A DNA stretch of 64,000 nt from an uncultured Candidatus Saccharibacteria bacterium (GTDB taxonomy: Bacteria > Patescibacteriota > Minisyncoccia > Phycocordibacterales > UBA6899): NCBI GenBank assembly GCA_964386905.1, contig CAYLUP010000002.1, forward strand, positions 522-64,521, given 5' to 3'. Below, piece after piece: positions 3,460 through 30,280 of the stretch. The notes beneath the pieces are model-generated. The model was not told the DNA's origin. It saw nothing but the letters and a program-made list of their open reading frames with translations, and searched no databases. The position numbers were made by a program, and so were the translations under genes. Each line of letters begins with the position of its first letter. Position 1 is the first letter of the stretch.

Positions 3460-3487
3460 CTTATTGCAAAATGCTCAATTACGTTTA

Positions 3488-3563
3488 GAACTGAAGGGGA
3501 ACTGAAGGGGAGAACTGAAGGGGACAGGCACATTCAAGAACTGAAGGGGACAGGCACATTCAA
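3488..3563 (+). repeat. Tandem direct repeats at the left end of the IS: two 26-bp units (gaactgaaggggacaggcacattcaa at 3512-3537 and 3538-3563) preceded by two shorter gaactgaagggg units
   Basis: Seen directly in sequence; the last unit contains the left inverted repeat of the IS. Confidence 0.8.
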
Positions 3564-4354
3564 TAGCAGATAGTTATGGTATAATTATATAGTATGCCTC
3601 GCTCTTCCCGTGTTGATGTTGGTGGCCACATCTATCATGTCATTAATCGTGCTGTTGGTCGCTTGCAAATATTTAATAGTCCAGAGGAATATCTGGACTT
3701 TTTGAATATGATCAGAGAAGTAAAAACATGGGTGGACGTTGATCTTCTTGCATATACCTGCATGCCCAATCATTGGCATATCGTCATGAGAACAAGAGAA
3801 GATGGAGATCTCTCGAAGTTCATGCATCGACTGACAAATATGCACACGCGTCACGTTCACTCAAAAACACATACTATCGGAACGGGCCCACTGTACCAGG
3901 GAAGGTACAAGTCTTTTCTTGTCTCTTCTGATGAGTATTTGTCTATCCTTCTCCGTTATGTAGAGAGAAATCCGGTCCGTGCTCGGATTGTCGACAGGGC
4001 AGAGGACTGGAGGTGGGGGAGCGCATGGGTTCGAACGAATGGAAATATTGAACAAAAGAAAATTCTATTACCACTGGAACTACTTGAGGACGAGATATAC
4101 TTCCCATCCAATATTGCTGCATATTTAGAGTGGGTCAATACGCCAGATGAAGACGAAATATTGAGACCAATACGAAATGCGGTAAAACGTGGAGTACCCT
4201 ATGGTCGCCCAGCATGGGTGAGTCAGATGGTAGCTCAGTATGGTCTGGAAAGCACTGTTCGGCTTCCAGGAGGGCAGATCGGTGTTCCAAAAACCAAGAT
4301 ATTTGATTAGAACACGAATTGCAGGGTGATGGCGGTGCCTGTCCCCCTCAGTTC
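3538..4354 (+). mobile_element. IS200/IS605-like insertion element (Y1 HUH transposase flanked by 20-bp inverted repeats)
   Basis: Left end GAACTGAAGGGGACAGGCAC (3538-3557) and right end GTGCCTGTCCCCCTCAGTTC (4334-4354) are inverse complements with one mismatch; they bracket the tnpA gene and its own -10 box (ggtataat at about 3575). Confidence 0.65.
3594..4310 (+). CDS. tnpA: IS200/IS605-family (Y1, HUH) transposase / REP-associated tyrosine transposase-like
   Basis: 238 aa; YHVINR motif; HUH motif HWHIV; catalytic Tyr context YQGRYKSF; matches Y1_Tnp/COG1943 architecture with a longer C-terminus. Confidence 0.8.
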   Translation: MPRSSRVDVGGHIYHVINRAVGRLQIFNSPEEYLDFLNMIREVKTWVDVDLLAYTCMPNHWHIVMRTREDGDLSKFMHRLTNMHTRHVHSKTHTIGTGPLYQGRYKSFLVSSDEYLSILLRYVERNPVRARIVDRAEDWRWGSAWVRTNGNIEQKKILLPLELLEDEIYFPSNIAAYLEWVNTPDEDEILRPIRNAVKRGVPYGRPAWVSQMVAQYGLESTVRLPGGQIGVPKTKIFD

Positions 4355-4504
4355 CTATTTATTTTTTGCATCCTGCTCGACAGGAGTCCTTTGTCACACT
4401 GTACAGGTATTCGGCATAGTTAAAATTTTTCCTTTGCTTGCATAATTCAATTTTTTCAGTAGTATTGCTCTTGGAATATTCTAAACAGAAGGGAGGTGAT
4501 ACAG

Positions 4505-4585
4505 ATGACGATCAAAGTGACGAAGCGTCGCAAAACGGGGCGGACCGGCAACTCGCTCGGCAAGACCCAGACCAGCAACTGCTAG
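4505..4585 (+). CDS. Small ORF, 26 aa (MTIKVTKRRKTGRTGNSLGKTQTSNC): candidate RiPP precursor / rSAM substrate peptide
   Basis: Strong SD aagggaggtga 7 nt upstream of ATG; Lys/Arg/Thr-rich with a C-terminal Cys; ends 63 nt upstream of the radical SAM/SPASM gene; not on the ORF track because it is below the size cutoff; replaces the overlapping 93-aa TTG-initiated track ORF 4438..4719. Confidence 0.4.
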   Translation: MTIKVTKRRKTGRTGNSLGKTQTSNC

Positions 4586-4648
4586 CTCACCCTGGTATGG
4601 CGGCGGAAGATCACTTCCGTCGCCTTTTCTTAAACATGAGGTGCATGT

Positions 4649-5875
4649 ATGATTTTTTCAAATCTTGTGGTAAAGGCCAAGGCAGACGATTATTTTCAGC
4701 TCATCAATATAACAAATGAGTCTGATGCTATTGTAGGAAGAGATGTGTTCGATTTGCTTGTTGCACTGTCTCAGAAAGCTACTTTGAAAGAGTGCTCTGT
4801 GCCAGAACAAAATTTGTTAGAGCTTCTCGGGGAAGAGCTTGAGATTTATATTCAAGATGGAGTTGAAGATCTCGTTATTCGGTCAGGAGCACTGACCAAC
4901 CTGGAGTTTTATATTACGAATGCCTGTAATTTGCGCTGCAAGCATTGTTATTTCTTCGCAAAAGGGAAGCACGAACGTGCACAATTTCTCGATCTCGAAG
5001 TCATGAAGCGTACGATTCTCCGTGCTGAGGAAATGGGCATGTACCGCATCAAGTTATGCGGGGGTGAACCCCTTTTCTATGACCGGATGGAGGAACTTAT
5101 CCATTTTTTGAACACAAGAAAGATTGGTGTCACTGTTATCTCTAACGGTCTTTTGCTTCATCGCTATGTGGGACTCTTCGATCCACTCAAGGTGTCATTT
5201 GTAATTAGTCTCGATGGATTCGCTCCAGCACATGATTATCTTCGAGGAGCTGGCACATTCGACCGTACGGTACAAAATATCAAAGATGCGCTTGCGCGCG
5301 GCTTCGATGTTTCGGTGAACATGGTCGTGTATGACCGCAATAAGGACGACGTTGAGGTATTTACAGACTTTGTCATTGGCATGGGCGTCCGAGTGCTTAA
5401 TGTTCAGGTTGTTCGTCCGAAAGGGATGGCCTCGGAACACCTTGAGACCGAACTCGTTGCTGATGAAGACTTCCTTCGCGACATACACCAGAATGAACTT
5501 GAAGACCAGGCTGCAAAGATTGCTTGCGGAGAACGGTTCTGCACTTCTTGTACAACCGGGCTTACTATTGACTTTGATGGAAGTGTCATCGGTTGCCCTT
5601 TCCTTGAGCAAGAAAGAATTGGGAATGTGATCCATGAGGATATTGAATCCATTTATCAGCGTAGTATTCGAGAGAATCCACTCCGATTCGTTCCTGAAAA
5701 GGCAGAGTGCCTGAGTTGCCCTTTGTTTGGTGAACTGTGCGCTGGGGGATGTCGGGCGCGTGCGCAGAAAGTGGTTGGGTCGATGTATGCATGCGATTAT
5801 TGGATTCCGTTCTTGTTGAATCATCCAAAATTTAAAGAAAGCCCTAGGCCAGCACAAGACTATCTCCTTATTTGA
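4649..5875 (+). CDS. Radical SAM enzyme with C-terminal SPASM domain and N-terminal RRE-like extension (peptide-modifying maturase candidate)
   Basis: 408 aa; CNLRCKHCYF (Cx3Cx2C) at about aa 95; GGEPL; C-terminal CTSCTTG...GCPF...CLSCPLFGELCAGGCRARA = 7-Cys SPASM pattern; about 90-aa N-terminal domain before the cluster, as in sactisynthases/PqqE-like enzymes. Confidence 0.8.
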   Translation: MIFSNLVVKAKADDYFQLINITNESDAIVGRDVFDLLVALSQKATLKECSVPEQNLLELLGEELEIYIQDGVEDLVIRSGALTNLEFYITNACNLRCKHCYFFAKGKHERAQFLDLEVMKRTILRAEEMGMYRIKLCGGEPLFYDRMEELIHFLNTRKIGVTVISNGLLLHRYVGLFDPLKVSFVISLDGFAPAHDYLRGAGTFDRTVQNIKDALARGFDVSVNMVVYDRNKDDVEVFTDFVIGMGVRVLNVQVVRPKGMASEHLETELVADEDFLRDIHQNELEDQAAKIACGERFCTSCTTGLTIDFDGSVIGCPFLEQERIGNVIHEDIESIYQRSIRENPLRFVPEKAECLSCPLFGELCAGGCRARAQKVVGSMYACDYWIPFLLNHPKFKESPRPAQDYLLI

Positions 5876-5888
5876 GTCACAGTACGAC

Positions 5889-5912
5889 CCGCCACTCCTG
5901 TGGCGGTTTTTT
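5889..5912 (+). terminator. Rho-independent terminator closing the peptide-rSAM unit
   Basis: ccgccactcctgtggcgg hairpin followed by tttttt, 14 nt after the rSAM stop. Confidence 0.65.
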
Positions 5913-5994
5913 AATGCATCTTCTTCTGGGGCGAGACAAGAAAATTAAGCCAATTATGTATGGCGTTATTATTGTATGGAAGTATAATGTTGAA

Positions 5995-6405
5995 ATGAAG
6001 ATTTTTATTATCTGCAGTAAGCGTTTTTATGATCGCATTCCAGGGGTTGCGACAGAGCTTGAAAAGAGTGGGCATATCCTTACAATGCCAAACTGTTATG
6101 ATGCTCCACAAACAGAAGATGAATATCGGAATCAGGGAAAAGAAGTCCATGCAATGTGGAAATCGGAAATGATTCGCCATAGTGTTGATGTTATCGAAAA
6201 AAATGATGCCGTACTTGTCCTCAATTTTGATAAAGGAGAGGAGAAAAACTATATTGGAGGAGCAACATTCCTGGAAATGTACGATGCGTTTCGTTTGGGA
6301 AAGAAAATCTATCTTTTGAATGATATTCCAGAAGGGATGTTGCGAGATGAAATTATTGGATTTAGTCCTATTGTTTTAGGTGGCGATTATTCTCTATTAT
6401 TATAA
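5995..6405 (+). CDS. Nucleoside 2-deoxyribosyltransferase-fold (NDT/Rossmann-like) protein
   Basis: About 136 aa from MKIFIICS; motif YIGGATFLEMYDAFRLGKKIYLLND aligns with the NDT catalytic-Glu region (EDVGLGMELGYALSQGKYVLL); the upstream in-frame extension of the track ORF (5872-5994) overlaps the terminator and is unlikely to be coding. Confidence 0.45.
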   Translation: MKIFIICSKRFYDRIPGVATELEKSGHILTMPNCYDAPQTEDEYRNQGKEVHAMWKSEMIRHSVDVIEKNDAVLVLNFDKGEEKNYIGGATFLEMYDAFRLGKKIYLLNDIPEGMLRDEIIGFSPIVLGGDYSLLL

Positions 6406-10211: not shown

Positions 10212-10372
10212 GAGCTGAAGGGGGCAGGCACAGTCAAAGTCCCCTTAAGTCCCTCTCAGCCCTGGAAAGCACTGTTCGGCTTCCAGGAGGGCAGATCGGT
10301 GTTCCAAAAACCAAGAAATTTGATTAGAACACGAATTGCAGGGTGATGGTGGTGCCTGTCCCCTCCAGTTTC
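10212..10372 (+). mobile_element. MITE-like internal-deletion derivative of the IS200-like element
   Basis: 10262-10345 is about 95 % identical to the last about 65 nt of tnpA plus its 3' flank (4245-4330); flanked by diverged copies of the IS inverted repeats (gagctgaagggggcaggcac at 10212; ggtgcctgtcccctccagtttc at 10351); no ORF. Confidence 0.6.
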
Positions 10373-17662: not shown

Positions 17663-17692
17663 ACACACAACAATACTGTTGTGTGTTTTTTG
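17663..17692 (+). terminator. Rho-independent terminator
   Basis: acacacaacaatactgttgtgtgt followed by tttttt. Confidence 0.6.
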
Positions 17693-17739
17693 TGTATTGT
17701 TTTCTGTTCTTTAGAGATAAAACTTGTTACAATGAAGAC

Positions 17740-19557
17740 GTGAAGTCGGTGTTCTTGAAAATACTGCCGATTCTTTTTCTCGTAGGAGCGTCCTCTGTCT
17801 TCTATGCTTTTTTCTATGCGGAAAAGGTTGGTGCACAGGTCTTTCGATTGTTTCCAGAATCGTGTGAGGGTGGATTTGATAATCCTGATCGTGCAGCAGG
17901 AGTGTACCAAGTGTCAACACTTGATCCGGATTTTATCACAACCGGAAATTCAGCGATTCTTTTTGATGGAAAATCAACACAAATGATCTGTCAGTCTTTC
18001 CGCGGAGATGTTCTGCCAAATACCCTTCCGAAGCAGATTGCAATAAAAATAGCCTGGAAGTACGGATATGACAAACAGGTTCTTCGTATGGAGGAAGAGG
18101 GTGTTGCTGTCTCTGCCAGTGGAACAACGGTATTTATCGAAGAAAGTGCACCGCTAGAGATCGCCCATGATATAGACACACCTATCGCTGATTCAACTGA
18201 ATCGGGTGTTGTGAACGCTTCTGAGGCAGTGGTTGGGGACACGGTTCGCATCCCAGAGGACCAGAATTCCACCCTTGATGATCCAGATCCTTCTTCTAGT
18301 GAAGGGGGGATACCTCCTCGTGAATCTCCAGTATTGAGTGAGGACAATGCTTCTCCTCTGCAAATAGAAGAAGCCACGCAGATAGTAGAGCCTGTTCCTG
18401 ACGTGTTGTCACCAACACAAGAACCCGCAGCTTTTGATGGCGCGATTCCACCCGCAGGAGAGTCTTCCCAAGAAGTATCTGCGCCCGCGCCAGAGCCTGC
18501 TCCGACTCCGACCCAGGAGGCCTCAAGCGTTTCTTCTCCTGACAGTGGTACAGTTTCTTTTTTAGAGTGGTTTATCGCGCGTGCATATGCAGAAGAGCTT
18601 GCTGTTGGTTCATCCCCCGAGTCTTCCTCTACTGCTCTTCTTGTGAAGACACCTCTCCCCGAAGATTCACAATCTCCTGTTGCTGATCAAGGGCAAATAG
18701 TAGACGCATCTCTTCTCACTTCTTCAACTTCTCCAGATACAGTCTTGGTGTCTTCATTGGATGAGGGTTCTTCTGCATCAGGAACCTTGTTATTCAATTC
18801 TGAGACAACGTTGATGGCATCATCAGCTTCATCTTCACTCACACAAGAGCCTGCCGTGTTCAACGAACAAGTGGTTCGGACATCTGGGCCAATAGAAGTG
18901 CTCTATTCCTTTGACGGTGACAGTTGGGAATCTGCCGGTTTTGCAGACCCGGAGAATTACCTGGAACATACATTTCCTCTCGTACTCGCGTCATCAACAA
19001 CGTGGGAAGAGCTTGCTTCTGTGCGTGTTGCAATTCGTACACATGCAGAAATAAATGATGTGCCACTTCTTATTCTTGTTGATGGCATGTGGCTTGAGGT
19101 TGCATATGAAGATACCGTTGACGATCCACACCCTATGCCGTCAGAATATCGAGGAGATGTTTTTCTTGGTTCTGTGACAAGCGACACAAAGACTGCACTT
19201 CTCGTTGAGAGACCGCTTCGCATTGGAACTACAACTGCATCTACAACAGAGTTGTGGCTCAGGGAAGGATTTGCGTCGAGTACGTCGTGGAAGTATGTTG
19301 CTGGAAGTGAACGAGTCGCCTCAACTACAAAAATATTTTTCCGAGAAGGACATATTGTCTGGATTGGCATCGATCGCGCACTCTGGGTTTTCAATCCATT
19401 AAGTGATGCTTTTGATTCGCTATCAATAGATCCGGTGGAGCCAACAGAGTATCTCTTGTCTGGACCTACTGGAGAAAAAACTGTTGTGTATGTAACGCAG
19501 CCGGATGATGTTGTTGCTTTTGTTGAATATGTGCCTGTTCCTCTCAATCTAGAATAA
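17740..19557 (+). CDS. Membrane-anchored extracellular protein with long acidic Ser/Pro/Thr-rich low-complexity region
   Basis: Probable GTG start at 17740, since the track ATG at 17683 lies inside the upstream terminator; N-terminal TM; about 250 aa of S/P/T/E/D-rich linker; globular C-terminal region. Confidence 0.45.
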   Translation: MKSVFLKILPILFLVGASSVFYAFFYAEKVGAQVFRLFPESCEGGFDNPDRAAGVYQVSTLDPDFITTGNSAILFDGKSTQMICQSFRGDVLPNTLPKQIAIKIAWKYGYDKQVLRMEEEGVAVSASGTTVFIEESAPLEIAHDIDTPIADSTESGVVNASEAVVGDTVRIPEDQNSTLDDPDPSSSEGGIPPRESPVLSEDNASPLQIEEATQIVEPVPDVLSPTQEPAAFDGAIPPAGESSQEVSAPAPEPAPTPTQEASSVSSPDSGTVSFLEWFIARAYAEELAVGSSPESSSTALLVKTPLPEDSQSPVADQGQIVDASLLTSSTSPDTVLVSSLDEGSSASGTLLFNSETTLMASSASSSLTQEPAVFNEQVVRTSGPIEVLYSFDGDSWESAGFADPENYLEHTFPLVLASSTTWEELASVRVAIRTHAEINDVPLLILVDGMWLEVAYEDTVDDPHPMPSEYRGDVFLGSVTSDTKTALLVERPLRIGTTTASTTELWLREGFASSTSWKYVAGSERVASTTKIFFREGHIVWIGIDRALWVFNPLSDAFDSLSIDPVEPTEYLLSGPTGEKTVVYVTQPDDVVAFVEYVPVPLNLE

Positions 19558-19565
19558 TAGTACTT

Positions 19566-22500
19566 ATGTTTTTCCATTCATATCACTCGAAAAGAATACG
19601 TGCAGTATGGTCAACCATGCTTCTTTTTGGATTGTGTTGTGGAATACTGTACGCTCCTCATCTGCTCACTTTTTTTGCAGGAGGTAGCGAGGTTGCGATG
19701 AAAAAGGCAGAGGCATCATACCAGTTTGCCCCAACAGGGGGAGGCATTGTGATGGGCACAGCGCCCGCTGTACGTGCTGCAACAACCGCAGCGACCGAAG
19801 GGGTGAATGTGGGAGACTGGAAGGGTGCGAAGGCCGACGACAATTTGCACTTTGGTATCACCTCAACGGCATCCGGATATAATGCGTATCTTGATATTGG
19901 AAATGTTGAGTTGCATGGAGCAAACAAGTTCATTATAGAGACAGAGTTTGATCTCGACGCGACAATTCCTCAGACCCGCGTGCAAATTTGCGACTGGGTC
20001 TCGTCAACGGGCGTGGCGAATGCTGCTGATGCACAGTGTACTGGTGGCGGTTGGAGGAATTTGAATCTGAACGACACAGCCATAAATACTGCAACGTATG
20101 GAAGATATAGTTGGCATGTGTATGATGGGTATTGGAATAGTACTGCGACAACGAAAATTGCGACACCATTGTCAAATTTCGTGAACGGCTCCCAATCAAT
20201 TCGTGTTCGGTATTTTTCTACAACAAGTAGCGCTGCCTCTATTGTACACATTGATTATTTGCGTGTGTTTGCAGTGGTAAACCCCGTATATGCTCCTGCT
20301 GGGGTGACACAGATTTCAGGGGGAACGCCTCTTGGTGATTATTCTCTTGCCGCAATGGGCGGTATGGGCCAGACGGGATCGGATAACGCGTACTTTCGGG
20401 TTCCTGGCACCGTAGGTGCTCCGTCAGACTTCTACTATACCTTTGCAAACGTGAAGTATTTTGCTGGTGCAAACACAATTCTCTTTCGTGCGGAGCATTC
20501 CTGTTCTGGAACAAATGCAGGGGTGACATATCTTCCAAAGATTTTTAATTTTAACTCTCAGGTATGGGACGATCTAACGTCTACTCCTATTGCGTGCTCG
20601 ACGACAGACGCAACCAATGCATGGGCACGAAGTAATATTTCAATGGGGGACTATGTCAGTAATGGAGAAGTACGTGTCGGGTGGTATGCAACAACAAACA
20701 GTACATTGGAAATCCGCAATGACATCGCGTACATTATGATAGGAGCGGTCACAAATGGTACCAGCGAGATCACTTTTGGAACAAATGCTGGTGGCTCTGC
20801 GGCGAGCACACAAGACCTCGATATGACAGGTATCAGTAGTACATGGGACATTCAGTCTGTTGATGAATCAAACACGTTCAGTACGCCAATATATGCCTTT
20901 GATAATGATGCTGATGCAACCGTTGAGGAAGCATCGGCTGCAAATATCGATTTCTCTCTTCGTCCTCCTACGAACGCTGCGCTTGCGGGAATTTATTTTG
21001 CGGGAAGGTACCGCTCGGGAACTGCTGGGACCGTGAATCTTGGTGTCGCTGATATGGCTTCTCGAACGAATACACAAGGTGGCTGGACGCAGGTTGGTGC
21101 AAACGGAACAACGGCATTATTGTATTCCGATAACATCAGTGTGAGAGCGGTCACTTCAGGAGGGTCTGCTGGTCTGTATCTCAACCCAGAAGATTTTATT
21201 ATGGCAGAAACAGGGCGCATGAAGATGCGTTTGCGCACATCGACATCTGGTGCGACGACAAATAATTCTATTGCGCAATGGGATTTCGCGATGCTATCGC
21301 TTTCTTGGATTGAAGACATTGAGCATCGTTCTGGTGATTCATCATATACGCCATCGGGTGGTGGAATTGTGACTGGAACAGGCCCTGCTATTCTTGCTGC
21401 CACAGCAGCAAATACCGAAGGAACGAATCTTGGGAGTTGGCGTGCAACAAAAGCGGATGATAATTTTCATTTTGGTATTACGTCGACTGCATCAGGATAT
21501 AACGCATATATCGATTTTGATGATGTCTACCTCAATGGTGCGAATATTATGCACATCCAAACGGAGTTTGACCTTGACGCGACTGCTCCGCAGACCCGCG
21601 TGCAAATTTGCGATTGGGTCTCATCAACGGGTGTGGCGAATGCCGCTGATGCACAGTGTACTGGTGGAGGCTGGAGAAACGTAAGTCCGAATGATGCGCT
21701 GATTACTACAACAACACCAACTGCGTACCATTGGCAAATCTATGATGGATACTGGAACAGCACTGTAGTTGCAAAAATTTCAACTCCGTTAACAAATTTT
21801 GTGGATGGAAATAATACGGTCCGCATTCGATACTATTCCACAACAAGTAGTGCCGGTTCGATCGTCCATATTGACCACGCTCGCATTATGCCTGTTGTGA
21901 ATCCGGTGTATTCCGCATCTGGAGCAACACAGATTACTGGGGGGACTCCTCTCGGCGATTATTCTCTCACGGCTATTGGTGGTGCAGGGCAGACGGGGTC
22001 GGATAATGCATATTTTCGTGTTCCTGGAACCGCGGGTGCTGTTTCTGATTTTTACCTTTCATTTCAAAATGTAAAAACATACCCTGGGGCAAATGCAATC
22101 CTCGTACGTGCAGAGTATTCATGCTCTACGACTGGCATTTCCCATCGGCCTAAGATATATAACTTTAACTCGTCGAGCTGGGAGGATTTGACGACTGCTT
22201 CCATTGCATGTTCGACAACAGATGCTACGAATGCCTGGGCAAAAGGGAATGTGACAATTGCAAACTATATTTCGAATGGAGAAATTCGTATTGGATGGCG
22301 AGGACTGGCAAACGGAACACAGGAAATTCGTATTGATCTTGCATACGTGATGATTGGTACGGTGAACAACGGAACATCTTCAATAACCTTTGGAACGAAC
22401 TCCGCAGGAACTGCTGCAAATACTCAAACGCTTGATATGAATGGGACTGCGAGCACATGGAATATTGCTTCGGTTGATGAGTCGAATACTCTCGGTTTTG

Positions 22501-23426
22501 CAATAAACGCAAACGATAACGACAACGATGCGACTGTTGAAGAGGCTACGGCTGCTAATATGGACTTTACGTTGCGAGTACCAGAAAATGCATTCCCTAC
22601 AGGAGTATTTTTTGCAGGACGATATATGTCGGGGGTAGCGGGGACGGTAAATCTTGGTGTTGCAGACTATCGAGGAAAAACGAGTACCCAGGGGGGCTGG
22701 GTTCAGGTTGGTGCAAATGGAACAACTGCTCTGACCTATTCTGATAATATTACAATGGTGTCGGTTGCTTCGGGTGGCGCTGCTGGCTTGTGGACGAATC
22801 CGCGAGACTTAGTGAATGATACGGCGTCTACTATGAACATGCGCTTAAGAACATCTCTCTCTGGAGCAACAACAAATAATTCTGTTGCGCAGTGGGACTT
22901 CGCAATGCTGTCTTTGCAGTGGATAGAAACGCCTCCGCCACCATCGACGTTATCCTTTAGTATTTCAGATAACACGATTGGATTCGGAACACTCACTGCC
23001 GCACAAATGCGTTTCGCTTCAGGTGGTGGAGGGGGAAGTACATTGCAAATTTCCGCACATACTATTTCTGCCGCTTCAAATGCACCTGGTGGATACGTGG
23101 TAACGATTGATGGAGAGACGTTGACGTATGGGCCATATGAAATTTCTGCAGCAGGTGCAACTCCGATTATACCAACAGCTGGAATTGAGCAATTTGGTAT
23201 CAATGCAATAAAGACGTTCACGACAGGGTCTGGGTCTCCGCTCTACCCGTACTCTGCAGGTTTTGCTTTTGATATTGGGAATTTGCCGTCCCCAATTCTT
23301 GCAAACTATACAAACGACAACATTGAGGACACGTATGATATGTATTATTTGGCGAATATCTCTGCGGATACCGAAGCGGGAGAGTACGCTGCAGTGGTGA
23401 CATACACAGCAACAGCAACATTTTAA
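19566..23426 (+). CDS. Giant surface protein (1286 aa): N-terminal TM/signal, two about 540-aa tandem repeats, C-terminal pilin-like (SCPU/Csu-like) domain
   Basis: The repeat unit recurs with 1620-nt period (19739 vs 21358); the C-terminal about 150 aa (LSFSISDNTIGFG...YLANISADTEAGEYAAVVTYTATATF) is shared with the next two genes. Confidence 0.6.
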   Translation: MFFHSYHSKRIRAVWSTMLLFGLCCGILYAPHLLTFFAGGSEVAMKKAEASYQFAPTGGGIVMGTAPAVRAATTAATEGVNVGDWKGAKADDNLHFGITSTASGYNAYLDIGNVELHGANKFIIETEFDLDATIPQTRVQICDWVSSTGVANAADAQCTGGGWRNLNLNDTAINTATYGRYSWHVYDGYWNSTATTKIATPLSNFVNGSQSIRVRYFSTTSSAASIVHIDYLRVFAVVNPVYAPAGVTQISGGTPLGDYSLAAMGGMGQTGSDNAYFRVPGTVGAPSDFYYTFANVKYFAGANTILFRAEHSCSGTNAGVTYLPKIFNFNSQVWDDLTSTPIACSTTDATNAWARSNISMGDYVSNGEVRVGWYATTNSTLEIRNDIAYIMIGAVTNGTSEITFGTNAGGSAASTQDLDMTGISSTWDIQSVDESNTFSTPIYAFDNDADATVEEASAANIDFSLRPPTNAALAGIYFAGRYRSGTAGTVNLGVADMASRTNTQGGWTQVGANGTTALLYSDNISVRAVTSGGSAGLYLNPEDFIMAETGRMKMRLRTSTSGATTNNSIAQWDFAMLSLSWIEDIEHRSGDSSYTPSGGGIVTGTGPAILAATAANTEGTNLGSWRATKADDNFHFGITSTASGYNAYIDFDDVYLNGANIMHIQTEFDLDATAPQTRVQICDWVSSTGVANAADAQCTGGGWRNVSPNDALITTTTPTAYHWQIYDGYWNSTVVAKISTPLTNFVDGNNTVRIRYYSTTSSAGSIVHIDHARIMPVVNPVYSASGATQITGGTPLGDYSLTAIGGAGQTGSDNAYFRVPGTAGAVSDFYLSFQNVKTYPGANAILVRAEYSCSTTGISHRPKIYNFNSSSWEDLTTASIACSTTDATNAWAKGNVTIANYISNGEIRIGWRGLANGTQEIRIDLAYVMIGTVNNGTSSITFGTNSAGTAANTQTLDMNGTASTWNIASVDESNTLGFAINANDNDNDATVEEATAANMDFTLRVPENAFPTGVFFAGRYMSGVAGTVNLGVADYRGKTSTQGGWVQVGANGTTALTYSDNITMVSVASGGAAGLWTNPRDLVNDTASTMNMRLRTSLSGATTNNSVAQWDFAMLSLQWIETPPPPSTLSFSISDNTIGFGTLTAAQMRFASGGGGGSTLQISAHTISAASNAPGGYVVTIDGETLTYGPYEISAAGATPIIPTAGIEQFGINAIKTFTTGSGSPLYPYSAGFAFDIGNLPSPILANYTNDNIEDTYDMYYLANISADTEAGEYAAVVTYTATATF

Positions 23427-23427
23427 T

Positions 23428-23452
23428 AACACGCCCGTTTGGGCGTGTTATG
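23428..23452 (+). terminator. Hairpin terminator
   Basis: aacacgcccgtttgggcgtgtt hairpin; downstream T-run is weak. Confidence 0.45.
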
Positions 23453-23460
23453 CTATATAT

Positions 23461-24510
23461 ATGATACACAGAATATGTTTTTGTTTCTCATTCTTCTTTT
23501 GTATGAGCATCGCATTTTTTGTTCCCGCTCAAACGCTTCTCGCTGCATCATTATTGCAGCTCTCTGACATGCTGTCTGCCCAACGCCCAAATGCTGAATC
23601 GAGTCATAGAATCCAGTTTCAAACTCCGACGGGTATTAATGCTCCTGGAGATACCATCGTCATCACCTTTCCTGCGGACTTTAATTTTACAGGCAAGGAT
23701 GCGACATTCGTAAATCTTTATCATGGTGCGACTGGCGGCGAAACAGAAGAGTATATTTCGACAACACCAACACTTGGATTTTGGGGCGCTGCTTTTTCTG
23801 GAACGCAGAATCGAGTGCTTACATTGACTCCTCCAGCTGATGGGGTGGGGCAAGCAGAGATTTTTGCGAATGAAATTGTCCGAGTAAGGTTAAATCCGAC
23901 TAACGCCCTTAATCCCTCGACTGCAGGAGACTATATCGTTGCCATCTCTGGCGGTTTTGGAGATACGGGAAGTATATTGGTCCCCATTATTAGTGATGAT
24001 CAGGTCTTCGTTTCTGCAACAGTTCCCCAAGCGCTTTCATTTTCAATTTCAGACAATAGTGTTGGTTTTGGTCCACTGTCTGCTTCTGTATCTCGTTATG
24101 CAACCGGAGATGGGACAGGGAGTGCTACTCCTGTCGTTGCGCATACAATAACCGCAAGCACCAATGCATCCGGTGGGTATAGTATTTCCCATGTGTCAGG
24201 GACGTTAACAAGCGGAGCGCATAGTATTGACGCCATTGGAGGAGTCCCATCAAGCCCAATTCCAGGATCAGAGCAGTTTGGAATTCGTGGAGACGCTGCG
24301 GGTGGAAAAGGAGTGATGTCAACACGGTATGGATCTGCTCAATATGCCCTCGATGCGAGTGGATTTCCAGATACTTTTGCTTATACTATGTTTGCAGGTC
24401 CAACTCCTGAGACAACGTATTCAATATATTATCTGGCAAATATTTCATCTGGTACCGAAGCAGGTGAATATGGTGCTCCTATAACCTATGTCGCAACTGC
24501 AATGTTTTGA
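23461..24510 (+). CDS. Secreted pilin-like protein, paralog 2 (N-terminal domain + SCPU-like C-terminal domain)
   Basis: Signal peptide; shares TPTG..A.DTI.ITFPADF.FT and ...SFSISDN..GFG...YLANIS.GTEAGEYGAPITYVATAMF with its neighbours. Confidence 0.55.
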   Translation: MIHRICFCFSFFFCMSIAFFVPAQTLLAASLLQLSDMLSAQRPNAESSHRIQFQTPTGINAPGDTIVITFPADFNFTGKDATFVNLYHGATGGETEEYISTTPTLGFWGAAFSGTQNRVLTLTPPADGVGQAEIFANEIVRVRLNPTNALNPSTAGDYIVAISGGFGDTGSILVPIISDDQVFVSATVPQALSFSISDNSVGFGPLSASVSRYATGDGTGSATPVVAHTITASTNASGGYSISHVSGTLTSGAHSIDAIGGVPSSPIPGSEQFGIRGDAAGGKGVMSTRYGSAQYALDASGFPDTFAYTMFAGPTPETTYSIYYLANISSGTEAGEYGAPITYVATAMF

Positions 24511-24592
24511 CATTATCCACATAGTGATGTGGATTTTATGTTATACTGAAATCAATAACATGTTCCATCATGTTGCGAGAAATTACTATACA

Positions 24593-25648
24593 ATGTTCTT
24601 CTTTATGATCAAAAAATATTCAGTATCTATCACGGCCCTTACACTTCTGGTGATTCTCTCTGGGTTACCGCAGTTTGTATTTGCTGCAGCACTCACAAAT
24701 CTTTCAGATACAATGTCTTCTGCAAAGATTAATACCGTATCGAGCCACGTCATTCGCTTTACAACGCCGACTGGTGCAAATGAAGCAACCGATACCATTA
24801 TCATTACTTTCCCAGCAGATTTTGATTTTACAGCAAAAGCTATTGGTTCAGTAACGTTTACACATGGCGCATCGACAGGCCTTGAAACAACTGAAACACT
24901 TGCCGCGGCTCCATCCGCTACTGCATGGGGGGCTGTCTTTTCGGGAACTGAAAATCGCATTTTAACACTCACAGCTCCAACAGATGGAACGGGAACTGCT
25001 GTTCTTGCCCCAGGAGATAAAGTTATTTTTACATACTCCAGCGCAAACTCTACAAATCCAAGTACTGCAAACTCCTACTCAGTTAGCATTGCGGGAACTT
25101 TTGGTGACACTGGTTCAATTTTGGTTAATGTTATCAATGATGACCAAGTTCTTGTTTCTGCAACTGTTCCACAATCACTGACCTTTAGTATCTCAGATAA
25201 CACAATTGGTTTTGGTTCATTAACTTCAGCATCGGCACGCTTCGCGACAGGTGATGCAAACGGGAGCGGAACAGAGACGGAAGCACATAATATTATTGTC
25301 GGAACGAATGCAGCAAATGGATACACGGTAAATCTTGCCGGTTCTACATTGACTTATGGTGGAAATACAATTACTGCGATTGGGGCAACAAACAGTGCAT
25401 CAACTCCAGGAAGCGAACAGTTTGGTTTGCGTATGAGTGCGTCTGGTGGGACTGGGGCAGTATCCGCACCATACGCAGCAGACGGATTCGCCTTTGACTC
25501 AGCGGCATTTCCTGATCAGATTGCATCTGCCGCGGGAGCATCTGCAAACACGACATACTCGGCACGCTATCTTGCAAACATCAGCCCATCGACTGAGGCT
25601 GGAGCGTATACTGCAACATTGACATATACTGCAACTGCAAACTTTTAA
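24593..25648 (+). CDS. Secreted pilin-like protein, paralog 3
   Basis: Start at internal Met (MFFFMIKKYS) giving a signal peptide; about 45 % identical to paralog 2 throughout; ends ...TYTATANF. Confidence 0.55.
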   Translation: MFFFMIKKYSVSITALTLLVILSGLPQFVFAAALTNLSDTMSSAKINTVSSHVIRFTTPTGANEATDTIIITFPADFDFTAKAIGSVTFTHGASTGLETTETLAAAPSATAWGAVFSGTENRILTLTAPTDGTGTAVLAPGDKVIFTYSSANSTNPSTANSYSVSIAGTFGDTGSILVNVINDDQVLVSATVPQSLTFSISDNTIGFGSLTSASARFATGDANGSGTETEAHNIIVGTNAANGYTVNLAGSTLTYGGNTITAIGATNSASTPGSEQFGLRMSASGGTGAVSAPYAADGFAFDSAAFPDQIASAAGASANTTYSARYLANISPSTEAGAYTATLTYTATANF

Positions 25649-25670
25649 AACCGGCTATGGCCGGTTTTTG
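25647..25670 (+). terminator. Rho-independent terminator
   Basis: aaaaccggctatggccggttttt. Confidence 0.6.
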
Positions 25671-25712
25671 CTATTGACTATTTATATAAGTAAGAGAAAA
25701 TAGAGATATCAT

Positions 25713-26696
25713 ATGAAGCACATATTTGCTCTTACCCTCATTATTACTCCACTCTTTTTTTGTGTGCCTAGCGCGGATGCGTTAACTGTTTCGCCTGCAA
25801 AACAAGAAGTTCGTGCGAATCCTGGACAGGTATTGAAAGGTGAAATCGAATTGTTTAATGAACAGAATGAGACGAAAACCTTTTATACCTCATTTGAGAA
25901 TTTTGAGTCACGAGGTGATTCAGGTGCACCATACTTTATTGGTGCACAGGGTGGCCTGGCAACATGGATGAAATCTGAGGAATCTGTCACAATCGCTCCT
26001 GGTGACCGCATGAAGGTGCCATACACGATTACGATTCCTCAATCCGCAAAACCGGGTGGGTATTTTGCTGCACAGTTTTTCGGGACTGAAAAACCAAAAA
26101 CAGGTGATGGAAACCTTGCCATTGGAGGAAAGATTGGCGTCCTCTTTTTGCTTCGTGTTAATGGTGACGTTGAGGAGGCGGCGGGCGTAACTGGCTTTAC
26201 TACTGAGCAGAATCAACGTTTCTTTGTCTCTACTCCAATCCGATTTGAATATTTTGTGAATAACACAGGTGGTGATCGCGTTGTTCCAAAAGGAACTGTT
26301 GTCATTCGAAATTCTTTTCGAATGACAACAGAGAAGATATCTGCAAATGACAAAGAGGGGAGTGTCTTACCAAATGGCTCAAGAACATTTCCGGTATGGT
26401 GGGGTGACCCAGCAGCTTCTCTCAATAATGTATGTGATTCCAAAGATGATACATGCGTTCAAGGTGGTGGATTTTTTAGCCGTGTTGCATATGAGTGGAA
26501 GAATTTTCACTTCGGATGGTACTCTGCAACACTTGATGTTGCTTGGGGGGAAAAAGGTTCAACGATGAATGATACAATCCATTTCTTTGTACTTCCATGG
26601 CATCTTCTCCTCGCTCTTGCTGTTATCGCACTCGTGCTTTGGGGCCTTTTGAAAAAATATAATGCGTATATTATCGCACGTGCTGCAAAACGATAA
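25713..26696 (+). CDS. Secreted beta-rich protein with C-terminal TM anchor (chaperone/DUF916-like cell-surface protein, unknown function)
   Basis: Signal peptide; LTVSPAKQEVRANPGQVLKGEIELFNEQNETKTF strand pattern; C-terminal hydrophobic helix followed by KKYNAYIIARAAKR; translationally coupled (TAATG) to the dockerin gene. Confidence 0.4.
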   Translation: MKHIFALTLIITPLFFCVPSADALTVSPAKQEVRANPGQVLKGEIELFNEQNETKTFYTSFENFESRGDSGAPYFIGAQGGLATWMKSEESVTIAPGDRMKVPYTITIPQSAKPGGYFAAQFFGTEKPKTGDGNLAIGGKIGVLFLLRVNGDVEEAAGVTGFTTEQNQRFFVSTPIRFEYFVNNTGGDRVVPKGTVVIRNSFRMTTEKISANDKEGSVLPNGSRTFPVWWGDPAASLNNVCDSKDDTCVQGGGFFSRVAYEWKNFHFGWYSATLDVAWGEKGSTMNDTIHFFVLPWHLLLALAVIALVLWGLLKKYNAYIIARAAKR

Positions 26697-27739
26697 TGTT
26701 CCTTCTTTATCGAAAATTTTCTTTTCGTGTCGCACTCGCCTTTGCGTTTTGTGTACCTCTCGCCGCACTTGCTGCCATTACCGTAGAAATTACGGCTACT
26801 GTCCCTGGGTGCGGCGATAGTGTTATTGGCGTTGGTGAGCAGTGCGACACAACAAATCTTGGGGGTGCGACATGCTCTACGCTTGGGTATGCCTCTGGCG
26901 TTTTGTCATGTTCCAGTGTGTGTACGTATGTTACAAGTGCATGCAGTGTGACGCCGGTAACGCCTCCGAGTGGTGGTGGTGGCGGCGGCGGATATTATGC
27001 TGTTCCAGCAACAAATATCGTCTTTTCCGGGAAAGCATATCCACGAAGTACGGTGACCATATTAAAAGATGCTCAAGTTGTTGCAACGACCATTGCCGAT
27101 GCACAGGCTGAATTCCAAACAACGATATCGGGTATTTCATCGGGAAATTATAATTTTAGTGTCTACTCAGAGGATGATCGCGGTGTGCGCTCCTCGCTTT
27201 TGTCTTTTCCTATAAGTGTGAGTTCTGGGGTGACAACAAAAATTGGAAATATCTTTATTGCGCCAACACTTTCGGCAGATAAAACTGAAGTTCGAAAGGG
27301 TGACGATATTGTATTGTTTGGAAGAACAACCCCAAATGCAGAGGTGTCTATCTCAGTTCATTCTTCAGTTGAGATGTTTTTCAAGCGACTCGCTGATGCA
27401 AGTGGTGCCTACCTTTTTCGTATTAATACACTCCCACTAGAGTATGGGGCACATGCAGCAAAAACAAAATCAGCGCGCGATGAGGAGCTGAGTTCCTTCT
27501 CGCAATCAGTTGGTTTTACTGTTGGAATAAAAAATATTGCATCTCTGTCGCAACCTGGCGTGCATCAGCAATGGTCAAAAGGTGATGTCAATAAGGATGG
27601 CCGTGTGAATCTTGTGGATCTTTCTATTGTGGCGTATTGGTATAAAAATGCGTCTTACCCAAAGCATCTTGATTTAAATGGAGATGGCCATGTGAATCTG
27701 GTCGACTTAAGTATCCTTATGTATTTTTGGACTGGCTAA
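26696..27739 (+). CDS. Secreted Cys-rich protein with Gly7 linker, two Ig-like beta domains and a C-terminal type-I dockerin
   Basis: C-terminus GDVNKDGRVNLVDLSIVAYWY...DLNGDGHVNLVDLSILMYFW = two canonical Ca-binding dockerin repeats; N-terminal about 50-aa domain with 8 Cys. Confidence 0.8.
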   Translation: MFLLYRKFSFRVALAFAFCVPLAALAAITVEITATVPGCGDSVIGVGEQCDTTNLGGATCSTLGYASGVLSCSSVCTYVTSACSVTPVTPPSGGGGGGGYYAVPATNIVFSGKAYPRSTVTILKDAQVVATTIADAQAEFQTTISGISSGNYNFSVYSEDDRGVRSSLLSFPISVSSGVTTKIGNIFIAPTLSADKTEVRKGDDIVLFGRTTPNAEVSISVHSSVEMFFKRLADASGAYLFRINTLPLEYGAHAAKTKSARDEELSSFSQSVGFTVGIKNIASLSQPGVHQQWSKGDVNKDGRVNLVDLSIVAYWYKNASYPKHLDLNGDGHVNLVDLSILMYFWTG

Positions 27740-27740
27740 T

Positions 27741-28589
27741 ATGCGTACATATTTCATTGTTATTTTTATGGCACTCTTTGCTCCCGCAAGCGTGTTCGCC
27801 TACGAGTTTCGTGCAGAGGTGCGCGAAACACAGATTGGGCCAGGGTCTACGGTTATTGTTGATCTGAAACTTGCAGCGCGGACACTAGTAAATGCGTGTG
27901 AAGGATATCTTCAGTATGACAGTTCCGCATTTGATATCGTTCGTATTTCTTCTGGAAATTCTGTTGTTAATTTTTGGATCGAGGAGCCAAAAGTCACTGA
28001 GTACGGGATTCGATTTTCAGGAGCAACTCCTGGTGCATTCTCTGGGCAAGATAATCACGTGTTGAGTGTGGCATTTCGTGCGAAGCGAGAAGGCATTTTT
28101 GATTTTGTTCCCCATTCTTCTGTCGTATATTTGTCTGACGGGCATGGTACATCACTTGTGCCTCGAGCTCACGCAGCAGCTGTCTCCGTTGATGGTTTTG
28201 CTCGTAGTGAGCATGTCGTGGATGGAGACACTGAGCTTCCTGAGGATTTTACCCCATTTATTGTTGAGCATCCTGATATGTTTTCTGGAGAGAAAACTCT
28301 TATCTTTGCGACGCAAGATAAAGGATCGGGAATCTCACATTATACTGTCAAAGAGGGATTGCTCGGGTGGTATCGCACAGCATCTTCTCCCTATCTCTTG
28401 AAACATGATGCATTGCATCGTACAATATATATACGAGCCTATGACCATGCGGGGAATATCCGCACAGTCATCATTCCCGCTACTGTACCGCGTTCAGCAT
28501 TCTCTTGGTGGATGGTTGGTGGACTCACCGTTCTTACCTGTTTCGCACTTTTGACAATAGTATGGAAAAAATATTTCATCAGACGATAA
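27741..28589 (+). CDS. Membrane-anchored cohesin-domain protein 1
   Basis: Signal peptide; cohesin-like LKLAARTLVNACEGYLQYDSSAFDIVRISSGNSVVNF...HVLSVAFRAKREGIFDF; C-terminal TM plus KKYFIRR stop-transfer. Confidence 0.7.
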   Translation: MRTYFIVIFMALFAPASVFAYEFRAEVRETQIGPGSTVIVDLKLAARTLVNACEGYLQYDSSAFDIVRISSGNSVVNFWIEEPKVTEYGIRFSGATPGAFSGQDNHVLSVAFRAKREGIFDFVPHSSVVYLSDGHGTSLVPRAHAAAVSVDGFARSEHVVDGDTELPEDFTPFIVEHPDMFSGEKTLIFATQDKGSGISHYTVKEGLLGWYRTASSPYLLKHDALHRTIYIRAYDHAGNIRTVIIPATVPRSAFSWWMVGGLTVLTCFALLTIVWKKYFIRR

Positions 28590-30280
28590 TTGCTTTTTGC
28601 TTTCTTGCATTCCCATGCATATCTTTTGCTGCAACCCTGTCGCTTGCACCGTCAGTATTTTCGCCACAGGTTGGGAGTACTTTTGTCGTTAATGTGAATG
28701 TGTCGACTCCTGATAAGGTGATGAATGCCGCTTCAGGAGTTCTTTCGTACGACCCTGCGCTTCTTGAAATTATCTCTGTGTCCAAGACAGGGTCTATCGT
28801 GTCCTTGTGGGCAGAGGAGCCACTATTTGACAATACTAGCGGCCGCATGAGTTTTGAGGGTATTTTATATGCGCCAGGGTATTCTGGCCCGTCTGGCAAA
28901 ATTTGCGCAATTACATTTAAGGCAAAAGCCGTTGGCAGTACAGTACTTCGCTTCACAAATGGCTCGGTGTTGGCAAGTGATGGATATGGGGAGAATATTC
29001 TTTCTTCCATGAGCCCGCTCTCTCTTGCTGTTGGACAGCCCACCAAGAAGCAAGTTCCTATCTCGCTTGCTGGCGAGGTAGAGAAAGAGCCTGTTCGAAT
29101 ATTTGGGCGTGCAGTTGCAATTACATCAAGTTCACACCCAGATGCGAACGCGTGGTATGCAAATAATTCTCCCGTGTTTTCTTGGGTTCTCCCCGAGGGT
29201 GCACTCGAAGTTAAGACATTAATTAGTCGTCTCAGCTCACGAAATCCAACTGTCCCGTACATTCCACCAATTGCTGAGAAAAAGGCGGAAAAAGTGATTG
29301 ATGGGACACATTATTTTAGTCTTCAGGTTCGGACGAGGGATGGTTGGTCTCCAACATCACGATATCAGGTGAACATTGATACTGTCCCGCCAAATAAATT
29401 TACTGTCGCTATTGTAAACGAAGACCGAGATAAAAAAACTCCCCCACATATTGCATTCGAAACACAAGATGCACTTTCTGGTGTCAGTCATTATGAAGTG
29501 CGTGTTGATGATGGCGAGGTTATGCGGACATCTTCTCATGACATGAAAGATCCGTTTGCGATTCCCGCACTTCCTCCTGGTGGTCATATTGTTACTGTTT
29601 CCGCCTTTGACCACGCAGGGAATATGACGCAAGCAGCACTAGATTTTACGGTAGATGCCATTCCTTCTCCTAAAATCATTGCGCTTCCACAGGTTGTCTA
29701 TGGGGGAGAGCGGTCAGAGATTCGAGGAATCTCATCCCCGTTTGATACTGTTTTCGTGAGATATTCTGATGGTAATACCTTTATACATGAAGAATCAGTA
29801 ACGACGGGGGAGGCTGGGGCATTCGTGATACCAGTAACCTCAAAAATTCCACGTGGTTCATATATAGTTTCTGCGTATGCTGTTGATCGGTCTTTGTCGC
29901 GAAGTTACGAAACAACACCAGCTATCCTCTCTCTCCGGCCGTTTTATGTAAAGGCGTCATTTCTTGCATTTGCGCTTTTTGGCGTTTTGTTCCTTGTTGC
30001 TATTGGGGCAACTATCGCTATGTGGTTATATGCGCGTCGACACGGAGAACGTGTTGCACGTGTTGCTCTTATGCGCATTCGATATGCTGAACAGGAGACA
30101 GAAAAGGCCTTTGATATTTTAAGAGAGGAAATTATTGAACGTGTTGCGCTGCTTAAGGCAAAGAAGCCAAAAAGGAAATATACTGCAGAAGAAGTACACT
30201 TCCTTGAGACACTTGAGAGCTATCTTGGAGAGGCGAAGGATGTCATCGTTTCAGATGTTCGAAAAGTTATTGAAAAATAA
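28562..30280 (+). CDS. Membrane-anchored cohesin-domain protein 2 (cohesin + Ig-like domains + TM + cytoplasmic coiled tail)
   Basis: N-terminal cohesin: VVNVNVSTPDKVMNAASGVLSYDPALLEIISVSKTGSIVSLW...KICAITFKAKAVGSTVLRF (compare CipA cohesins); TM at about aa 480; 28-nt overlap with the upstream gene. Confidence 0.75.
   Translation: MEKIFHQTIIAFCFLAFPCISFAATLSLAPSVFSPQVGSTFVVNVNVSTPDKVMNAASGVLSYDPALLEIISVSKTGSIVSLWAEEPLFDNTSGRMSFEGILYAPGYSGPSGKICAITFKAKAVGSTVLRFTNGSVLASDGYGENILSSMSPLSLAVGQPTKKQVPISLAGEVEKEPVRIFGRAVAITSSSHPDANAWYANNSPVFSWVLPEGALEVKTLISRLSSRNPTVPYIPPIAEKKAEKVIDGTHYFSLQVRTRDGWSPTSRYQVNIDTVPPNKFTVAIVNEDRDKKTPPHIAFETQDALSGVSHYEVRVDDGEVMRTSSHDMKDPFAIPALPPGGHIVTVSAFDHAGNMTQAALDFTVDAIPSPKIIALPQVVYGGERSEIRGISSPFDTVFVRYSDGNTFIHEESVTTGEAGAFVIPVTSKIPRGSYIVSAYAVDRSLSRSYETTPAILSLRPFYVKASFLAFALFGVLFLVAIGATIAMWLYARRHGERVARVALMRIRYAEQETEKAFDILREEIIERVALLKAKKPKRKYTAEEVHFLETLESYLGEAKDVIVSDVRKVIEK

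Follow-up and report, generated by a model that had tools for sequence, protein, structure and literature searches.

We analysed a window of 64,000 nucleotides from an uncultured Candidatus Saccharibacteria bacterium (contig CAYLUP010000002.1, positions 522 to 64,521) and found, near its beginning, two adjacent genes that very likely constitute a minimal cassette for a ribosomally synthesised and post-translationally modified peptide (RiPP) in a chromosome of the candidate phyla radiation (CPR, also Patescibacteria). The unit lies on the + strand and consists of a 26-codon open reading frame (ORF; 4505-4585), a gap of 63 nt and an ORF of 408 residues (4649-5875), the latter encoding a radical S-adenosylmethionine (SAM) enzyme with a C-terminal SPASM domain and a predicted N-terminal RiPP recognition element (RRE). 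Radical SAM RiPP systems are defined by just this pairing, in which a translated peptide and an RRE-bearing radical SAM/SPASM enzyme are inherited together, and this enzyme very probably modifies the 26-residue peptide.

A RiPP system at this place had already been proposed in an earlier note, in part because the small ORF is preceded by a strong Shine-Dalgarno sequence and lies 63 nt upstream of the enzyme gene, both of which can be read directly in the DNA. The note had also named the outcomes that would speak against its proposal, namely a small ORF that is not kept beside orthologous enzymes, an enzyme that groups with SPASM enzymes acting on substrates other than such peptides, and an N-terminal domain with no predicted RRE fold. 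None of these came out against a RiPP, and as detailed below the proposal as a whole is supported.

The peptide gene and its conservation

The peptide encoded at 4505-4585 is MTIKVTKRRKTGRTGNSLGKTQTSNC, and its Shine-Dalgarno sequence, AGGGAGGTGA (4490-4499, + strand), ends five bases 5' of the ATG. Homologous small ORFs were found by reading, on the fetched contigs, the uncalled gaps upstream of orthologous enzyme genes, with one locus added by a scan for a DNA pattern. In total 11 distinct loci were obtained, the window included, and the peptide was present beside the enzyme gene at every one of them, with GGAGGTGA placed 4-9 nt 5' of the peptide ATG in nine. The other peptides are MIKIVKSRKKGRAGNSLGKTKTSNC (L001), MTIKVVKSRKTGRTGNSLGKTQTSNC (L002), MITVLKSKKEKPFVAGNSLGKTQRSNC (L003), MIKVTVSKKDEKFITANSLGKFRTSNC (L006), MIKLIKSKKARKFVTGNSLGKTASSNC (L007), MKIISRRKSREFVGGNSLGKFRTSNC (L009), MIKVLVSKKTGKFLAGNSLGQTPTSNC (L010), MLKVIKSTRQRKKKFVVANSIGKSKKAGCR (L012), MLKVIKSTKQRKKIFTVANSLGKSKKAGCQ (L013) and MKITVIQSKKTEAFVVGNSLGKTKTSNC (L034).

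All of these peptides share one layout, in which a basic leader with the consensus M-x-I-K-V-x-K-[S/R]-[K/R]-K is followed by the core [G/A]-N-S-[L/I]-G-[K/Q]-x4-[N/G]-C. Four residues of the core (N16, S17, G19 and C26 in the window peptide) are invariant, and so is the distance of ten residues from the Asn to the Cys (N-x9-C). The residue before the Asn is always Gly or Ala, and this invariant small residue marks a possible junction between leader and core, which in the window would divide the peptide into MTIKVTKRRKTGRTG and NSLGKTQTSNC. Across the family the peptides are 25-30 residues long with a single Cys, and most members have no aromatic residue. Most terminate in S-N-C, the Cys being either C-terminal or adjacent to the C-terminus in all 11 peptides, with R or Q following it in two.

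The enzymes at the peptide-bearing loci are 42-58% identical, and the codons of the core (n = 12) vary mainly where the amino acid is unaffected: 11 columns are variable at the third position, against 7 at the first and 6 at the second. Pairwise comparisons gave 252 synonymous codon differences, and Asn, Ser, Leu and Gly are each written with several synonymous codons across the loci. Since third positions vary while the amino acids are kept, selection acts on the translated product and not on the RNA. The codon of the invariant Cys (4580-4582 in the window) is a separate observation, being TGC at all 11 loci and never TGT, despite mostly AT-rich genomes and free third positions nearby. Locus L002 offers a further comparison: its peptide (3847-3927) differs from that of the window at 2 of 26 residues and is similar in DNA too, whereas the enzymes beside them have diverged to 57% identity, so that constraint is much tighter on the peptide than on its enzyme.

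The motif is also rare by chance. The DNA pattern SD-ATG-NSxGK-x5-C (SD, Shine-Dalgarno) occurred once in the window and in none of 100 shuffles, and a scan of 241 million metagenome records with the peptide pattern returned eight stretches, three of which were genuine small ORFs, each beside an enzyme gene. The remaining five were chance hits, unlike the peptide family, none of them beside a radical SAM gene, and in three of them a stop codon interrupts the frame from ATG to motif. No NCBIfam model matched the peptide. On this comparative evidence the small ORF is a real gene, evidently translated and co-inherited with the enzyme.

Architecture and isolation of the radical SAM/SPASM enzyme

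The enzyme gene has its own Shine-Dalgarno sequence, GAGGTG (4636-4641, + strand), and its start codon is supported by the orthologues, all of which begin with MIF or MKF. When 5.8 billion proteins were searched, 17 family members were recovered (36-100% identity, 245-934 bits) and the next match stood at 134 bits; 1.84 billion cluster representatives, searched exhaustively with HMMER, gave three representatives of the family (245-408 bits) followed by a drop to 149. Judged from these sequence searches, the family is tiny and sharply isolated.

Three parts can be distinguished in the protein, all encoded on the + strand: an N-terminal domain (residues 1-82; 4649-4894) predicted to adopt the RRE, or PqqD-like, fold; the radical SAM core (residues ~83-284; 4895-5500, with approximate bounds); and the SPASM domain with a conserved C-terminal tail (5525-5875). 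In the radical SAM superfamily a CxxxCxxC motif within a partial TIM barrel binds the [4Fe-4S] cluster that cleaves SAM. The core matched Pfam family PF04055 over residues 88-241 (E 1.4e-24; 87.6 bits against a cutoff of 29.5) and contains C93-x3-C97-x2-C100, invariant in all 17 members, so that the roughly 90 residues which the earlier note had counted ahead of this cluster are indeed there.

The SPASM motif reads C-x9-15-G-x4-C ... C-x2-C-x5-C-x3-C ... C, its seven or eight Cys holding two auxiliary [4Fe-4S] clusters. In the window enzyme a marginal match to PF13186 covers residues 298-358, and the C-terminal third has eight Cys, seven of which (C298, C316, C354, C357, C364, C368 and C382) are invariant in 17/17 members, C301 being present in 13. 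Their spacing is C298/C301...G311-x4-C316, C354-x2-C357-x6-C364-x3-C368 and C382, with x6 in place of the canonical x5. When aligned to the anaerobic sulfatase-maturating enzyme (anSME), C301, C316, C354, C357, C364 and C368 fall on the cluster ligands C261, C276, C317, C320, C326 and C330. The seven-Cys SPASM domain recognised from the letters alone is thus upheld, by the invariance of these Cys and by their alignment to known ligands.

Since C301 (C261 of anSME) is absent from 4 of the 17 members, the Aux I cluster may have an open site. In CteB as in SkfB, an open position on an auxiliary cluster has been proposed to bind the substrate, and in CteB the free iron is contacted by Cys21 of the peptide CteA (PMC8326336); the same is possible in the window enzyme, where C301 is dispensable.

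Structure prediction places the protein among RiPP maturases. A full-length AlphaFold2 model, built on the family alignment (mean predicted local distance difference test score, pLDDT, 84.9), was compared with the PDB by Foldseek, giving SkfB (6efn) as the best match (E 4e-19), followed by CteB (5wgg; 1.4e-16) and SuiB (9e-16), and then by anSME, BlsE, ChlB, MoaA, PqqE and viperins. SkfB, CteB and SuiB, each aligned over the full length, are RiPP maturases that bear an N-terminal RRE, and SkfB was also the best match in the PDB by sequence. Modelled separately, residues 1-82 (pLDDT 90.6) formed three beta strands and then helices, a fold that matched RRE domains, PqqD among them. No PqqD was detected at the sequence level in a Pfam search of 11 N-terminal domains at E values up to 10, and the RRE assignment, which agrees with the RRE-like domain suspected earlier, therefore rests on predicted structure. 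On these models, the enzyme has an RRE, a radical SAM and a SPASM domain, in that order.

Curated families gave a different kind of answer. The best 25 of 90 NCBIfam matches were all radical SAM models, mostly of the SPASM/twitch type, scoring 63-96 bits against cutoffs of 225-650, none of which was reached. Among these best 25 the StsB sactisynthase model (aligned to residues 12-371) was the only one to start within the first ~75 residues and cover most of the N-terminal domain, and the SCIFF maturase model was absent. As for the concern that the enzyme might group with SPASM enzymes that do not act on such peptides, the predicted fold sets SkfB, CteB and SuiB ahead of anSME, while the family is too isolated for a placement based on sequence. 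The enzyme thus belongs to the radical SAM superfamily and the SPASM subfamily and, by predicted fold, to the RRE-dependent maturases, with a peptide conserved beside it at 11/11 loci; it falls outside SCIFF, mycofactocin, pyrroloquinoline quinone (PQQ), anSME and every other NCBIfam equivalog, and for the sactipeptide and ranthipeptide classes it offers only the precondition, an invariant Cys in the core. A defence-system assignment by PADLOC was rejected, since the similarity to viperins is the generic one of the radical SAM core and the protein has RRE and SPASM domains.

Enzyme and peptide also appear to change together. The most divergent enzyme, P0121 (39% identity; locus L042), has upstream of it (843-982) a different basic peptide of 46 residues with two Cys, MKRESLNKKLKRITILKEPLKKRKFQNATGCGTRKNKEGYSCRALV, which ends in FQNATGCGTRKNKEGYSCRALV and contains N-A-T-G-C; its stop lies 7 nt from the enzyme gene, with no hairpin between. 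Enzyme and peptide have here diverged jointly, a pattern typical of RiPP families. Both Cys of this peptide have an Asn a few residues upstream. The cassette consists of the peptide and one enzyme, sometimes two: at L006 (1000-3263) and L010 (388-2874; the same as L011) a single peptide gene is followed by two tandem paralogous radical SAM/SPASM genes, and the first enzyme at L006, P0017 (339 residues), lacks the N-terminal RRE domain. Such tandem enzymes suggest two modifications, or a division of labour, in some members.

The modification that the enzyme may catalyse

In the mechanism that we propose, the basic N-terminal part of the peptide would be bound by the RRE domain, and the radical SAM core would cleave SAM to a 5'-deoxyadenosyl radical, which would abstract a hydrogen from the core NS[L/I]G[K/Q]-x4-[N/G]-C. 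The single invariant Cys would bind the auxiliary SPASM cluster and join the carbon radical, giving one thioether macrocycle (-2 Da). A thioether is favoured because Cys, Asn and Ser are the only invariant reactive side chains, and because thioethers are the products of the two leading fold matches, SkfB and CteB, which both have an open auxiliary-cluster site, C301 being dispensable here. Even so, we put a Cys thioether forward only tentatively, as a modification that may or may not prove correct. The acceptor might be the Asn or the Ser, both invariant, which precede the Cys by 9-10 residues, with a ring of 11 residues, although this assignment is doubtful.

Several points weigh against our reading of the cassette. 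The SPASM match is barely above the PF13186 cutoff (21.9 against 21.5 bits). Since no curated family cutoff is reached, the chemistry cannot be transferred by homology. Each precursor has a single Cys, while several are usual in sactipeptides and ranthipeptides. With neither a protease nor an exporter linked to the cassette, the release, export and target of any product are left unexplained. Finally, the closest outgroup enzymes (Thermodesulfovibrio and relatives, ~30% identity; L040, 1686-5770, and L041, 1614-5803) have no small peptide adjacent to them. Their chromosomal setting is conserved: a beta-CASP/metallo-beta-lactamase RNase gene is overlapped at its end by the gene of the outgroup enzyme, which is convergent with a Radical_SAM_N2 gene neighbouring ftsZ. 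One of these outgroup enzymes, P0030, aligns over 94% of the query, N-terminal region included.

It is quite possible that precursor and maturase are real and that the chemistry is something other than a thioether, the invariant Cys serving as a cluster ligand or as a recognition residue. The options would then include epimerisation, a C-C or C-O crosslink, oxidation of the Cys to a formylglycine or thioaldehyde-type product as in anSME, or C-terminal processing as in MftC. The hidden Markov models do not separate thioether synthases from other enzymes here, ScmF, TIGR04053, NirJ2, ACGX, MftC and WgkB all scoring 87-96 bits, and the leading fold matches also include SuiB, which makes a Lys-Trp crosslink, and anSME. 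In mycofactocin precursors the modified residue lies at or beside the C-terminus, and so does the Cys in all 11 peptides. Each option has its own difficulty, however. The core has no conserved aromatic residue, which makes crosslinks of the streptide, darobactin or triceptide type unlikely; a strictly C-terminal chemistry would not fit all members, since R or Q follows the Cys in two peptides; and for an anSME-type reaction the CxPxR motif of sulfatases is missing from the peptide and anSME itself lacks an RRE. More generally, no reactive side chain other than that of the Cys is invariant alongside N and S.

Comparison with characterised systems points in several directions. CteB and CteA of Clostridium thermocellum, which make thermocellin, a ranthipeptide of the SCIFF type, are likewise encoded by two genes, a short peptide and an RRE/radical SAM/SPASM enzyme, likewise without a linked protease or exporter and without a known biological role. 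However SCIFF peptides have ~45 residues and six Cys, whereas the window peptide has 26 residues, one Cys and a different motif; the enzymes share ~20% identity; and SCIFF/CteB systems are hosted by Clostridia, those described here by CPR bacteria. SkfB, AlbA and StsB, which join a Cys sulfur to an alpha-carbon, combine an RRE with a radical SAM core, as here, and use a Cys donor in the core of the peptide, the role proposed here for the invariant Cys. In contrast to the window enzyme with its SPASM domain, SkfB has a twitch domain, and the StsB model scored 79.5 bits against a cutoff of 625. Moreover, a typical sactipeptide contains several Cys arranged as a hairpin and is mostly encoded beside genes for export or immunity, in both respects unlike the window cassette.

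Two further enzymes, NxxcB of streptococci (an Asn-Cys beta-thioether within an NxxC motif) and QhpD (Cys to Asp or Glu), link one Cys to a carbon in the side chain of a residue that carries an amide or an acid. They resemble the present case in that an Asn is invariant together with the Cys (N-x9-C), most peptides also terminating in S-N-C and the L042 peptide containing N-A-T-G-C, the Asn link itself being a guess. The ring, however, would have 11 residues here and has 4 in NxxcB, and no homology to either enzyme is evident beyond the superfamily. MftC/MftA and PqqE/PqqA, in turn, offer a parallel to the window pair, since in each an RRE-dependent radical SAM/SPASM enzyme acts near the C-terminus of a short peptide and the product stays inside the cell; PqqD is among the RRE fold matches, and the MftC model TIGR03962 scored 90.5 bits against a cutoff of 265. 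Those systems, however, need MftB, MftD, MftE and MftF, or PqqB, PqqC and PqqD, while no further gene is conserved at the cassette loci, and their targets are Val-Tyr in mycofactocin and Glu plus Tyr in PQQ, MftA ending in GVY where the window peptide ends in SNC. Finally anSME has SPASM Cys that align one-to-one with those of the window enzyme and a Cys-containing substrate, as proposed for the window enzyme, but no RRE; its substrate is the CxPxR motif of sulfatases encoded elsewhere, and its model TIGR03942 scored 63.9 bits against a cutoff of 349.

Intergenic hairpin, surroundings and spread of the cassette

Between the peptide and enzyme genes lies a hairpin (4599-4631, + strand) with a stem of 11 bp, including 8 G-C pairs, a loop of 4 and TTTTCTT after it. 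A scan for terminator-like sites over 3.9 kb listed it first, and the earlier note had not mentioned it. At every one of the 11 loci a perfect stem (11-18 bp) begins 5-15 nt past the peptide stop, with unrelated stem sequences, and the spacers folded far more stably than shuffles, with z-scores of -3.4 to -6.5. In about half of the cases the stem leads into a clear T-run; four of the hairpins have none. In lantibiotic and sactipeptide operons a stem after the precursor gene is usually a leaky terminator or a stabiliser of the mRNA, leading to an excess of precursor. By analogy, the hairpin described here is probably a partial terminator or an mRNA-stabilising stem that sets a high ratio of peptide to enzyme transcripts; it would end most transcripts after the peptide gene and so provide more peptide than enzyme.

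The same order of short ORF, 5-15 nt, strong hairpin with T-run and structural gene is that of a classical attenuator, and the small ORF could in principle be a regulatory leader peptide whose translation, or stalling at the conserved C-terminus, controls the hairpin and hence the expression of the enzyme. We consider this very unlikely, since the enzyme has a predicted RRE fold and nothing else linked to it is a candidate substrate, and since an 11-residue amino-acid motif is kept with free synonymous change, unlike what is seen in leaders with codon runs. Nor is a stable alternative antiterminator evident: the whole 191-nt leader is no more structured than expected from shuffles (z -1.6) and has no standout alternative pairing, the terminator stem being its one conspicuous perfect helix. 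In addition four hairpins lack a T-run, and the 7-nt gap at L042 leaves no room for any hairpin. Regulatory and substrate roles of the small ORF are not mutually exclusive. An Rfam scan of the window and the leader region found no riboswitch or known RNA, the sole match being a meaningless microRNA (E 1.5).

The two-gene unit is closed by a second terminator-like hairpin with a T-run (5889-5912, + strand, listed at 5889-5906 in the terminator scan; a 7-bp stem with 6 G-C pairs, then TTTTTT), in agreement with the earlier view that the pair has its own terminator. The peptide region is GC-rich, as had also been remarked, with a GC content of 0.58 at 4500-4599 compared with 0.33-0.37 just upstream and 0.35-0.43 just downstream. 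The gene that follows (5995-6405) had been assigned a deoxyribosyltransferase fold, which we could not substantiate: its 136-residue product has no sequence relative in Pfam, NCBIfam, PADLOC or the PDB. No counterpart is kept at the other loci, and the gene is not part of the cassette.

Upstream of the cassette, the gene at 3594-4310 encodes a Y1/IS200-like transposase domain (PF01797, E 5e-16), where the earlier note had reported an IS200-like element. Its best model is the REP-associated tyrosine transposase (REP_Tyr_transpos; 72.7 bits against a cutoff of 80), the IS200 model scoring 16 against 55. The gene is flanked by 20-nt inverted repeats, GAACTGAAGGGGACAGGCAC, with two direct copies upstream (3487-3562) and one inverted copy downstream (4335-4354), and four tandem AGAACTGAAGGGGA units also lie beside it. 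Because of the flanking repeats and the best model, the locus looks like a REP/RAYT-type element rather than a plain IS200. About 6 kb away there is a second inverted pair of the same 20-mer (10212-10231 and 10352-10371) with no transposase between its arms.

The window as a whole is chromosomal CPR/Patescibacteria DNA, in which genes for SecA, AlaRS, PheT and GyrB are present. It also encodes a protein of 1286 residues (19566-23426) whose C-terminus scores above the cutoff of the NCBIfam model 'CPR Pam pilus system pilin subunit', which marks the host as a member of the CPR/Patescibacteria, and the genes around it (17683-30280) may form a pilus locus.

The family occurs in CPR/Patescibacteria, often amid mobile or accessory genes. 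One orthologue is annotated as Parcubacteria/Patescibacteria, and another lies on a 6.7-kb contig binned with Candidatus Electrothrix. The neighbours at other loci include gyrA/uvrD, ParA with two toxin-antitoxin pairs, a RepB primase with an integrase, a resolvase and a type IIG restriction enzyme, and an all-against-all BLAST of the flanking ORFs across the loci revealed no third conserved gene, protease or exporter included. These varied mobile and accessory neighbours, together with the Y1 transposase of the window, fit an accessory cassette that moves horizontally. No orthologue or peptide was found in the phage, plasmid and IMG/VR collections. That peptide and enzyme are functionally unrelated neighbours, the peptide being for instance a toxic or nucleic-acid-binding small protein that belongs to a mobile element, is hardly credible: the peptide is very basic and the cassette often sits amid toxin-antitoxin, partition, primase, integrase, resolvase and restriction genes, but the peptide is seen only beside this enzyme family, with 11/11 orthologues examined, while all other neighbours change.

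Taken with these results, the RRE-bearing enzyme and its peptide look like a previously undescribed family of radical SAM RiPPs. The core strings NSLGKT, GNSLGK, ANSLGK and NSLGKF had no occurrence in the literature searched, in which CPR together with ranthipeptides or RiPPs led to general surveys only. The enzyme may nevertheless be listed as an uncharacterised cluster in large compendia of RRE-associated radical SAM enzymes, for example somewhere in the full set of 15,000 enzymes (PMC10288494). Since uncharacterised families of radical SAM RiPPs are numerous, the surprise is limited. A single thioether derived from one Cys would be ordinary chemistry of the sactipeptide or ranthipeptide type on a new scaffold, so that a plain thioether ring would add one more family to a well-known class, and any other product would mean new enzyme chemistry.

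As for the role of the product, we can offer a conjecture that we think unlikely to hold in full: the enzyme would link the single C-terminal Cys to the Asn or Ser that is invariant ten residues before it, or alter it in some other way, to yield a small cationic macrocycle with no need of a dedicated protease or exporter; the cassette would be carried between CPR bacteria by mobile elements; and the product could act inside the cell or at the interface between episymbiont and host, perhaps in addiction, defence or interaction with the host. The natural-product chemistry of CPR/Patescibacteria is almost unexplored, and the system is near-minimal, with 81 nt for the peptide and 1.2 kb for the enzyme. 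The precursor is simple, with one Cys and mostly no aromatics, which should make heterologous expression easy and allow the choice of an acceptor carbon by an RRE-SPASM enzyme to be studied in a clean model; its CPR host, its minimal size and a core with only one Cys recommend the system for experiment. That genomes as tiny as those of CPR bacteria retain and exchange this cassette suggests that it has a real function.

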